A stretch of DNA of 64,000 nt from Escherichia coli. GTDB taxonomy: Bacteria > Pseudomonadota > Gammaproteobacteria > Enterobacterales > Enterobacteriaceae. The DNA is taken from the NCBI RefSeq assembly GCF_013315695.1, contig NZ_CP054353.1. One strand, written 5' to 3'. Positions 50,501 to 53,500 of the stretch are shown here, piece by piece; position 1 is the stretch's first letter; every line of letters begins with the position of its first letter. Made by a program: the position numbers.

Positions 50501-53500
50501 TTTCAGCGAGCTTAATGGTGTGGATGATGATATTGCCAGTCTTGATATCAGCGAAACAGGACGGGAGATCCTGCGCTATCATCAACTCACACTGACTACT
50601 GGTTATGACGGTAGCTACCGGGTTGAAGGTACAGTGCTTAACCAACGTTTGTGTTTATTTCACTGGCTACGACGTGGTTTCCGTCTGTGTCCGTCATTTA
50701 TTACCAGCCATTTCACCCCCGCCCTGAAGAGTGAACTGAAGCGGCGCGGAATTGCGCGTAACTTTTACGACGATACCAATCTACAAGCGTTAGTGAATCT
50801 CTGCTCCCGACGGCTGCAAAAACGCTTTGAAACACGCGATATTCATTTCCTGTGTCTGTATCTGCAATATTGTTTGCTGCAACATCACGCTGGAATTACG
50901 CCTCAGTTTAATCCGCTCCAACGTCGCTGGGCGGAATCCTGCCTTGAATTTCAGGTAGCGCAGGAAATTGGACGCCACTGGCAGCGTCGGGCACTCCAGC
51001 CTGTACCGCCTGATGAGCCACTGTTTATGGCTCTACTGTTTTCCATGTTGCGGGTTCCCGATCCACTGCGGGATGCGCATCAGCGGGACAGACAACTGCG
51101 TCAGTCTATCAAACGTCTGGTAAACCATTTTCGTGAGCTGGGAAATGTTCGTTTTTATGATGAACAGGGGTTATGCGATCAGCTTTATACCCACCTCGCC
51201 CAGGCGTTAAATCGCAGTTTGTTTGCCATCGGTATTGATAACACCCTGCCGGAAGAGTTCGCCCGCCTGTATCCACGCCTGGTGCGTACCACCCGCGCGG
51301 CGCTGGTCGGATTTGAAAGTGAATACGGCGTCCATCTTTCTGATGAGGAAAGCGGTCTGGTCGCGGTGATTTTTGGTGCCTGGCTAATGCAGGAAAACGA
51401 CCTGCATGAGAAACAGATTATTCTACTAACCGGGAATGACAGCGAGCGAGAAGCGCAGATTGAGCAGCAGCTACGCGAACTAACGTTACTGCCGCTCAAC
51501 ATTAAACATATGTCGGTAAAGGCATTTTTGCAGACAGGCGCTCCGCGCGGCGCGGCACTGATTATTGCGCCTTATACCATGCCGTTACCGCTCTTTTCAC
51601 CACCGCTGATCTATACGGACCTGACGTTGACAACACATCAACAGGAGCAGATCCGCAAAATGCTCGAATCAGCATGAGGGAACAACTTTCGGGCGCAAAA
51701 ACATTGCCGGAAGCGCCACCAGCGCCATCACCCAGAACACGCCGTGGCCGAGATATTGATACAGGAAACCGGCGAAAACGGTCATGATGGCGATACTGCC
51801 GCCCATCGCGACGGCAGAGTAAACCGCCTGTAAACGGATGACTTCGCTACCCTGGCGAGCAGCAATGTAGCGCATAGCGGCCAGGTGGCAGACCGTGAAG
51901 GTGCCGCAATGCAGAATTTGCACCACTATCAACCACGGCAACGCCGTAGTTGCTCCCATAATGCCCCAGCGCACTACGCCGCAAATCGCCGAGATCAACA
52001 GCATATCGCGTGCACTACAACGGCGGAAAAGTTTATTACTCAGCGCAAAGATAATGACTTCCGCCACCACGCCCAGCGACCACAAATAGCCCACCGCCGA
52101 GGCCGAGTAGCCAGCAGCCTGCCAGTAAATGGCGCTAAAACCGTAATAGGCCGCATGCGCCCCCTGCAATAAACAAACGCAGGCCAGAAAGCGCCAGTTC
52201 TGGCGAACCAGCGCCAACCACGCAGACCAACCGGTGCTCTCCTGCTGGCGGCTTGCCCCTTGTGGCTGAATCGTCGGACGGATGAGAAAGCCGAGCAGCA
52301 TGGATGCCACGCCCAACGTCAACAGCGCGAGGATCACCCGATAATCAAACATACTGACCAGTTTGCCCGTCAGCGCCGAGCCAATGACAAACGCCACCGA
52401 GCCCCACAGTCTCACTTTGCCGTAATCAAGCGGGAACTGCTTTTGCCACGTATTCGCCAGTGCATCGGTCAACGGTACCAGCGGTGAGAAAAAGAGGTTA
52501 AAACCAATCATCACCAGCATCAGCCACGCTACGTGCGCCCCCGCCCAGAAGGCGACAGCAAAGAGAAGTGTCAGCAGTGCCAGCACGCGCAAGGCGGAAA
52601 TCAGGCGGGAAGGATCGCTGACGCGGGGCGCGATGAGCAAACTCCCGAGGAAACGGGCAACCAGACCCGCCCCCAATAACAGGCCGATGGTTTCTGGCGT
52701 TAAACCAATCCCTTTAAGCCAGACGCTCCAGAAAGGTAGAAAAATGCCGTAACTAAAAAAGTATGTGAAATAGCCGAGCGCCAACCAGCGCGTGGATTGC
52801 AAAACCATGAGTCCCTCCCGTCAGGAGGCGTTAGTCTGGGGTTAATCGAATGTTGGTGCAAGTTGAAAAATAAGAATATTCGAGCCTGCTTCCTGATGTC
52901 TGTAACGCCAGTTCACAAGCACTAAAAAACTGCGAGCCGCGACGCATGTTGCAAAAATAATGCGTAATTATGCCGTTACGCATGCCAAACGTTCCTGCAC
53001 AATGGCGATGAAATCGCGTAATGCCGGCTTCATCTCCCCTTTCTTCCACGCCATCAGTAAAGCAATGGCAGGCACATTTCCGGCAATGGGTCGAAATACC
53101 ACCTGGCCGGTATTAAAATTATTCATATAACCGGGTATCAAAGTGACGCCCAGCCCCATCCCCACCAGATTCATGGTCACCAGAATATTCGTTGCCACCT
53201 GGACGATATTTGGCTGGCTGTTTTCTTGCGCAAACCACGCTTTAACGATCGGCGCAAGCGAACCGGAATACGCTGGATCAGTACTGACGAAATTCACGCC
53301 ATCCAGTTGCGCGGCAGTGATCTCTTTTTCATGTGCTAAAGGGTGATCAACCGGTAACACCACCACTAATGGTTCGTCAAAAAGCTCCAGATAATCAATC
53401 TCCGGGCTATAAACGGGATGGCGCATTAAGCCGACGTCGAGTTCACCACGGCGAATTTTTTCTTCCTGTTCCGTGGTGATTAAACTCACCAGCTCAATTA

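Follow-up and report, generated by a model that had tools for sequence, protein, structure and literature searches.

Convergent overlapping gene pairs in bacteria are thought to arise by movement of a stop codon. In the E. coli reference genome 663 adjacent gene pairs overlap, and 75 of these are convergent (Huvet and Stumpf, PMC4161906). A second described class is the convergent excludon, which is defined by mutually exclusive expression of the two genes through transcriptional interference or RNase III; the ExcludonFinder survey places csiE-hcaT among 165 convergent pairs of MG1655 whose transcripts overlap in half or more of 58 RNA-seq samples (NAR 2025, PMC12288877). The third class comprises the bidirectional terminators, which are intrinsic hairpins with A- and U-tracts on their two sides or else sites of a collision type (Ju et al. 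2019, cited in Wang et al. 2022, bioRxiv 10.1101/2022.10.23.513370).

Here we describe the junction of csiE and hcaT in a stretch of E. coli DNA of 64,000 nucleotides, referred to as the window. The junction resembles the convergent overlapping pairs in its opposite strands, its common 3' ends and a short overlap that contains both stop codons, and it is one of the approximately 75 pairs of this kind in E. coli. There is no essential difference from that class, since the 9-bp overlap with codons in register (TCA-NNN-TGA) is only slightly longer than the classic 4-bp YTAR form, which is itself present at csiE/hcaT in related genera. With the excludons the pair has overlapping transcript boundaries in common, by which its assignment was made, but the mutually exclusive expression that defines the class is putative for csiE-hcaT and the invariance of hcaT described below speaks against it. 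As with bidirectional terminators, the genes are convergent and both transcripts must end in the same short region; the junction differs from them in that no DNA separates the genes and that neither a G+C-rich hairpin between A- and U-tracts nor a conserved stem-loop is present. The overlap has already been annotated and the overlap of the transcripts already published, and the pair is an ordinary member of a common class. We consider it likely, with good confidence, that csiE/hcaT is an ordinary and old tail-to-tail overlap with no dedicated regulatory device and with little or no regulatory consequence. The elements of the junction are as follows.

50397..51677, + strand: csiE coding sequence, 426 aa (open reading frame and RefSeq annotation from strain MS 21-1, L001 3098-4378)
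51675-51677, + strand: csiE stop codon TGA (open reading frame)
51669..52808, - strand: hcaT coding sequence, MFS transporter of 379 aa (open reading frame and RefSeq annotation)
51671-51669, - strand: hcaT stop codon TGA, read as tca on the + strand (open reading frame)
51669-51677, both strands: 9-bp csiE/hcaT overlap, TCA-GCA-TGA = TCAGCATGA (sequence)

The open reading frames and the annotations agree in placing the two genes on opposite strands with their 3' ends facing and their stop codons within common nucleotides. Positions 51660-51679 read atgctcgaat cagcatgagg. The csiE frame ends with QQEQIRKMLESA before its TGA on the + strand, and the hcaT frame ends with LRPKVVPSC before its TGA on the - strand. 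Over the nine common bases the + strand thus encodes Ser-Ala-stop, the end of CsiE, and the - strand Ser-Cys-stop, the end of HcaT, so that the TGA stop of csiE is a serine codon of hcaT and the TGA stop of hcaT a serine codon of csiE. CsiE, which carries the product name stationary phase inducible protein CsiE, matches Pfam PRD domains (E 3.4e-24), and HcaT matches MFS_1_like (E 6e-54) over residues 8-359 of 379. Because the profile match ends at residue 359, the overlap lies within the C-terminal tail of HcaT, in the last approximately 20 residues, outside the MFS core. Judged from these domains and from orthologues at 35 other species loci, both csiE and hcaT are real genes.

If one of the stops or frames had been wrong, the true genes might not overlap at all. 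This reading is highly improbable, because a stop is fixed once its frame is known and both frames are conserved in 35 species as far as the last 1-9 residues, and because two independent annotations, RefSeq for MS 21-1 and the one for K-12, agree. Nothing was found in favour of an annotation error, which these conserved frames and concordant annotations effectively rule out. The convergent 9-bp overlap at 51669-51677 reported in the earlier note is thus correct in its coordinates and gene names. The re-annotation that would remove it, which that note had named as a refutation, was looked for and not found in the current RefSeq and K-12 annotations, both of which retain the overlap.

The same arrangement is present throughout the species. 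Strain MS 21-1, the closest complete genome, is 100% identical across a junction stretch of 751 bp and has csiE at 3098-4378 (+) and hcaT at 4370-5509 (-), and in K-12 MG1655 csiE (2665435-2666715) and hcaT (2666707-2667846) show the identical 9-bp overlap. Of 5426 complete E. coli genomes, 5424 contain the 751-bp region, each of them once, and in these the junction is annotated as csiE/hcaT or, in a deletion variant, as csiE/MFS transporter pseudogene; the central 67 bp have at least 99% identity in 5010 complete E. coli genomes. In E. coli EC77 (L002 3370-4043) a deletion joins a truncated hcaT, with the last 110 codons retained, to a truncated hcaE, and hcaR is gone; the 9-bp overlap with csiE is intact despite this deletion. 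The window contains six convergent gene pairs with gaps of 47, -9, 31, 53, 94 and 38 bp, csiE/hcaT being the sole overlapping pair. Genome-wide, a convergent overlap such as this one is not rare and statistically not unusual.

The age of the arrangement was approached with a CsiE scan in which one genome per species was kept, giving 36 loci. The stop-to-stop geometry was obtained by extending the tblastn alignments to the in-frame stop at each locus. The loci span Escherichia, Citrobacter, Salmonella enterica subsp. arizonae and diarizonae, Pseudenterobacter, Intestinirhabdus and Kosakonia as well as Leclercia, Enterobacter, Pseudescherichia, Silvania, Cedecea, Dryocola and Buttiauxella. At 35 of the 36 hcaT is the convergent neighbour of csiE, and at 32 of these 35 the two genes overlap or abut, with the following distances.

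-14 bp: Buttiauxella
-9 bp, TCA-NNN-TGA: Escherichia coli, E. albertii, E. whittamii, C. amalonaticus, C. sedlakii, Pseudenterobacter and Intestinirhabdus
-6 bp, TCATGA or TCATAG: Salmonella and three Citrobacter species
-4 bp, CTAA, TTAG, TTAA or CTAG: Kosakonia, Leclercia, Silvania, Pseudescherichia, Cedecea colo and others
0 bp: E. coli E69 and Enterobacter soli
Positive gaps, at three loci only: +38 bp (L022 4237-4274), +89 bp (L023 4237-4325) and +186 bp (L031 4152-4337)

It follows from the distances of -14, -9, -6, -4 and 0 bp that all three codon phases occur. The -6 form (TCATGA) and the -9 form (TCA-NNN-TGA) differ by one in-frame codon indel inside the overlap, which changes the lengths of both proteins together. 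As protein, the reading frames are conserved at the 35 species loci to HcaT residue 375-379 and CsiE residue 424-426 (tblastn). The terminal residues vary, CsiE ending with LES, LESA, LESG or LESD and HcaT with RPKV followed by 2-9 variable residues. The spacer DNA at L022, L023 and L031 we take, by eye and from the consensus sequences of such repeats, to be REP-like, paired-REP-like and ERIC-like, respectively. The ERIC-like insertion in L031 replaces the last HcaT residues and thereby creates a new C-terminal tail. The one locus devoid of hcaT, a Buttiauxella metagenome-assembled genome (L028), was considered as an example of a “free” csiE 3' end, but another convergent gene lies at +116 bp and there is no clear terminator, making this locus uninformative; from the reading of its sequence, that neighbour is probably a methylthioribose kinase gene.

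On this comparison of sequences the abutment of csiE and hcaT is ancient, while the length, the codon phase and the sequence of the overlap are free to change. That the presence of the overlap is conserved and its length and phase are not is explained more simply by tolerance than by selection for a function. The spacing stays at zero or below even between genera in which CsiE is only approximately 60% identical, and selection for the arrangement could be one reason for this.

The pairing with csiE extends further than the pairing of hcaT with the hca genes. Only at the three E. coli loci do hcaR and hcaE adjoin hcaT (window 51669-55355), and in more than 30 other enterobacterial species hcaT is still paired with csiE. 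Beyond hcaT, where the genes could be identified, lie yphA and/or glyA, with yphA in E. albertii and glyA in Salmonella arizonae. As hcaR and hcaE stand beside hcaT only at the E. coli loci, the hca operon seems to have been inserted later, next to a csiE/hcaT pair that was already there. The name “3-phenylpropionate transporter” for HcaT came originally from adjacency, and its experimental support is partial. One could speculate that the spacerless arrangement, found from Escherichia to Buttiauxella and older than the hca operon, is under selection, and that it couples a PRD-containing stationary-phase protein to an MFS transporter by antisense control or through some other common function, in which case the main role of the transporter would not be phenylpropionate uptake. 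We regard this as distinctly unlikely.

The earlier note also held that the overlap leaves no room for a terminator between the genes. This is correct, as there is no intergenic DNA in which one could be placed, and it can be extended to the adjoining coding sequence, which has no intrinsic terminator either. The following elements of the junction RNAs are relevant.

51660..51675, both strands: weak palindromic hairpin ATGCT-CGAATC-AGCAT, which spans the hcaT stop and reaches into the csiE stop (z -0.75 and -1.17)
51678..51724, + strand: csiE 3' untranslated tail, antisense to the last hcaT codons (K-12 Term-seq, PMC7815308)
51713-51725, + strand: small hairpin GCGC-CACCA-GCGC, no better than shuffles
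51898..52135, + strand: C-rich, G-poor stretch in the csiE read-through RNA (78-nt windows, C/G 1.4-2.0)
51291..51428, - strand: C-rich, G-poor stretch in the hcaT read-through RNA (78-nt windows, C/G 1.5-1.85)

A bidirectional intrinsic terminator, that is a G+C-rich hairpin with an A-tract upstream and a U-tract downstream, was found at the junction neither by the terminator scan nor in the folds or the cross-species structure. The nearest scan match to a terminator hidden in the coding sequence, a 5-bp stem at 51723-51706 (- strand), is located upstream of the hcaT stop and would result in a non-stop mRNA; for this reason it was rejected. Folds of the 160-170 nt downstream of each stop (z -0.85 and -0.72) were no better than shuffles, and neither were four local folds of 37-41 nt on both strands (z -1.17 to +0.70). 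With RNAalifold on 27 species no consensus structure was obtained downstream of the csiE stop (+), and downstream of the hcaT stop (-) the consensus reached merely -3.9 kcal/mol. The GGCGC/GCGCC stem of E. coli is not maintained, with 67% of cells paired and 120 of 500 shuffles equal to it. The Rfam scan returned no family at the junction, and the only inverted repeat there is one 8-nt pair of chance size (51723-51792).

The palindromic hairpin at 51660-51675 deserves separate mention, since it covers the stop of hcaT as well as part of that of csiE and could as a boundary stem-loop position head-on collisions of RNA polymerases, ending both transcripts. Such a mechanism has been put forward for numerous convergent pairs of E. 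coli without intrinsic or Rho terminators (bioRxiv 10.1101/2022.10.23.513370). Nevertheless, the hairpin has only 5 bp with two G-C pairs, folds with the poor z values given above and falls below the terminator-scan criteria, even though UUUU follows it in the - strand RNA. It is restricted to Escherichia and lies outside the cross-species consensus structure, and the mapped 3' end of csiE is found approximately 50 nt beyond it. Furthermore, the collision mechanism needs trailing polymerases and thereby high expression (bioRxiv 10.1101/2022.10.23.513370), and neither gene is known to be highly expressed. Altogether a collision-type terminator at this position is very unlikely.

Published transcript data for K-12 place the end of the csiE mRNA inside hcaT. 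Term-seq of MG1655 gave a 3' end at 2666762 (+), classified as “primary csiE, antisense hcaT” with an average read count of 1664 (Adams et al. 2021, eLife, PMC7815308, supplementary file 1). This end is positioned 47 nt past the end of the csiE stop at 2666715, corresponding to approximately 51724 in the window within GCGCCACCAGCG, where the flanking sequence from Term-seq is that of the window bar one base. No U-tract follows the mapped end. Its place in the file makes it most likely that the entry comes from the tab for LB at OD600 2.0, which fits a stationary-phase-inducible csiE. Among the bicyclomycin-defined Rho regions from exponential-phase LB cells none is listed at 2665-2667 kb (Adams et al., PMC7815308, supplementary file 2), and csiE is presumably little expressed in the cells of that dataset. 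The read-through antisense transcripts predicted in the earlier note are therefore documented, by the Term-seq end 47 nt into hcaT antisense and by the transcript overlap from ExcludonFinder (PMC7815308, PMC12288877). It had also named transcriptional interference as a consequence; overlapping transcripts alone do not imply it.

One form of such interference would be an excludon maintained by selection, where csiE transcription, for instance in stationary phase, lowers hcaT or the reverse, by polymerase collision or by RNase III cleavage of the duplex, with reciprocal expression as the result. The listing of csiE-hcaT in MG1655 (PMC12288877), the 47 nt of csiE mRNA antisense to hcaT (PMC7815308) and the overlap or abutment retained at 32 of 35 species loci can all be read in this way, and both genes have a link to stationary phase, csiE by annotation and hcaT through stationary-phase survival under oxidative stress (PMC10249474). 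Against it stands the expression of hcaT itself: its mRNA is one of the three that vary least between strains, temperatures and growth stages, and it serves as a qPCR reference (PMC3110127), which argues against strong control by a csiE induced in stationary phase. The gene has its own promoter, in which a single-base change raises hcaT expression (PMC10249474), and together with the spacer insertions tolerated in three species this argues against a strong effect of interference. A terminator-like hairpin with a T-run at 52960-52983 (-), overlapping the hcaR stop upstream of the 159-bp gap between hcaR and hcaT, agrees with a separate hcaT promoter. Neither the length nor the phase nor the sequence of the overlap is conserved, insertions of 38-186 bp being tolerated, and the documented antisense overlap is only approximately 56 nt. 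Any transcribed pair with overlapping coding sequences must also have overlapping transcripts, so the listing as an excludon is unavoidable here and carries no regulatory information. Finally, few collisions are to be expected if transcription of both genes is weak, as we assume. On balance we find a selected excludon improbable.

Returning to the ordinary tail-to-tail overlap, its existence can be explained by the fact that TGA and the serine codon TCA are reverse complements, whereby abutting convergent genes can end on each other's last codons. The common bases encode just the last two residues and the stop of each protein, residues that vary between genera, and the overlap therefore costs little. 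With neither a spacer nor an intrinsic terminator, RNA polymerase leaving either gene would enter the antisense strand of the other, and after release of the ribosomes the untranslated read-through RNA would be open to Rho. The C-rich stretches at 51898-52135 (+) and 51291-51428 (-), where C/G values of at least 1.4 are reached only from approximately 220 nt (+) and 240 nt (-) past the stops, are possible Rho loading zones, judged from base composition; their distance from the stops, like the absence of a listed Rho region at this place in exponential-phase cells, counts against a role of Rho. For csiE we envisage Rho-dependent or otherwise factor-dependent termination further downstream, after which the RNA would probably be trimmed from its 3' end as far as the small GC hairpin at 51713-51725, which would leave a stable end at +47 nt. 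Occasional head-on encounters of polymerases may add to the formation of the csiE end. The outcome would be a short overlap of sense and antisense mRNA, presumably of slight regulatory effect, if any, at the low expression assumed for both genes.

The overlap has little importance beyond bookkeeping, and the species survey adds a small evolutionary point. In practice, deletion or tagging at the 3' end of either csiE or hcaT alters the other gene, and the Keio csiE deletion, which was made with a mislocated primer, truncates hcaT (PMC9431181). Where hcaT serves as the widely used qPCR reference, part of its 3' end is covered by the antisense csiE transcript under conditions that induce csiE.

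Some further observations were made in the window. Inside the 3' end of hcaR lies iroK (b4706), with 21 codons at 52968-53033 (-), which is present in the K-12 annotation and absent from the automated RefSeq annotation of MS 21-1. Two copies of a 768-bp insertion encoding InsA (91 aa) and InsB (167 aa), at 38038-38805 (+) and 58296-59063 (-), are presumably IS1, to judge by their size and proteins. They are flanked by the 9-bp target duplications AACGATGTC and TATCTTGCA, respectively, and both are absent from MS 21-1, which is otherwise 99.9% identical. The copy at 38038-38805 is found approximately 20 bp upstream of an Rfam match to the IS128 sRNA (38825-39003), near ryfA (39140-39444) and the timP toxin gene (MS 21-1 annotation), and the copy at 58296-59063 is located between hcaD and yphA. 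At 8557-19964 (-), between xseA and the der side, there is a cluster encoding SinH (an intimin-like inverse autotransporter), a SinI-family protein and a 2691-aa protein with adhesion domains, a cluster that K-12 presumably lacks. Rfam matches above the gathering score were obtained for the sroE sRNA at 25163-25254 (-) and for the iscRS stability element at 46676-46785 (-).
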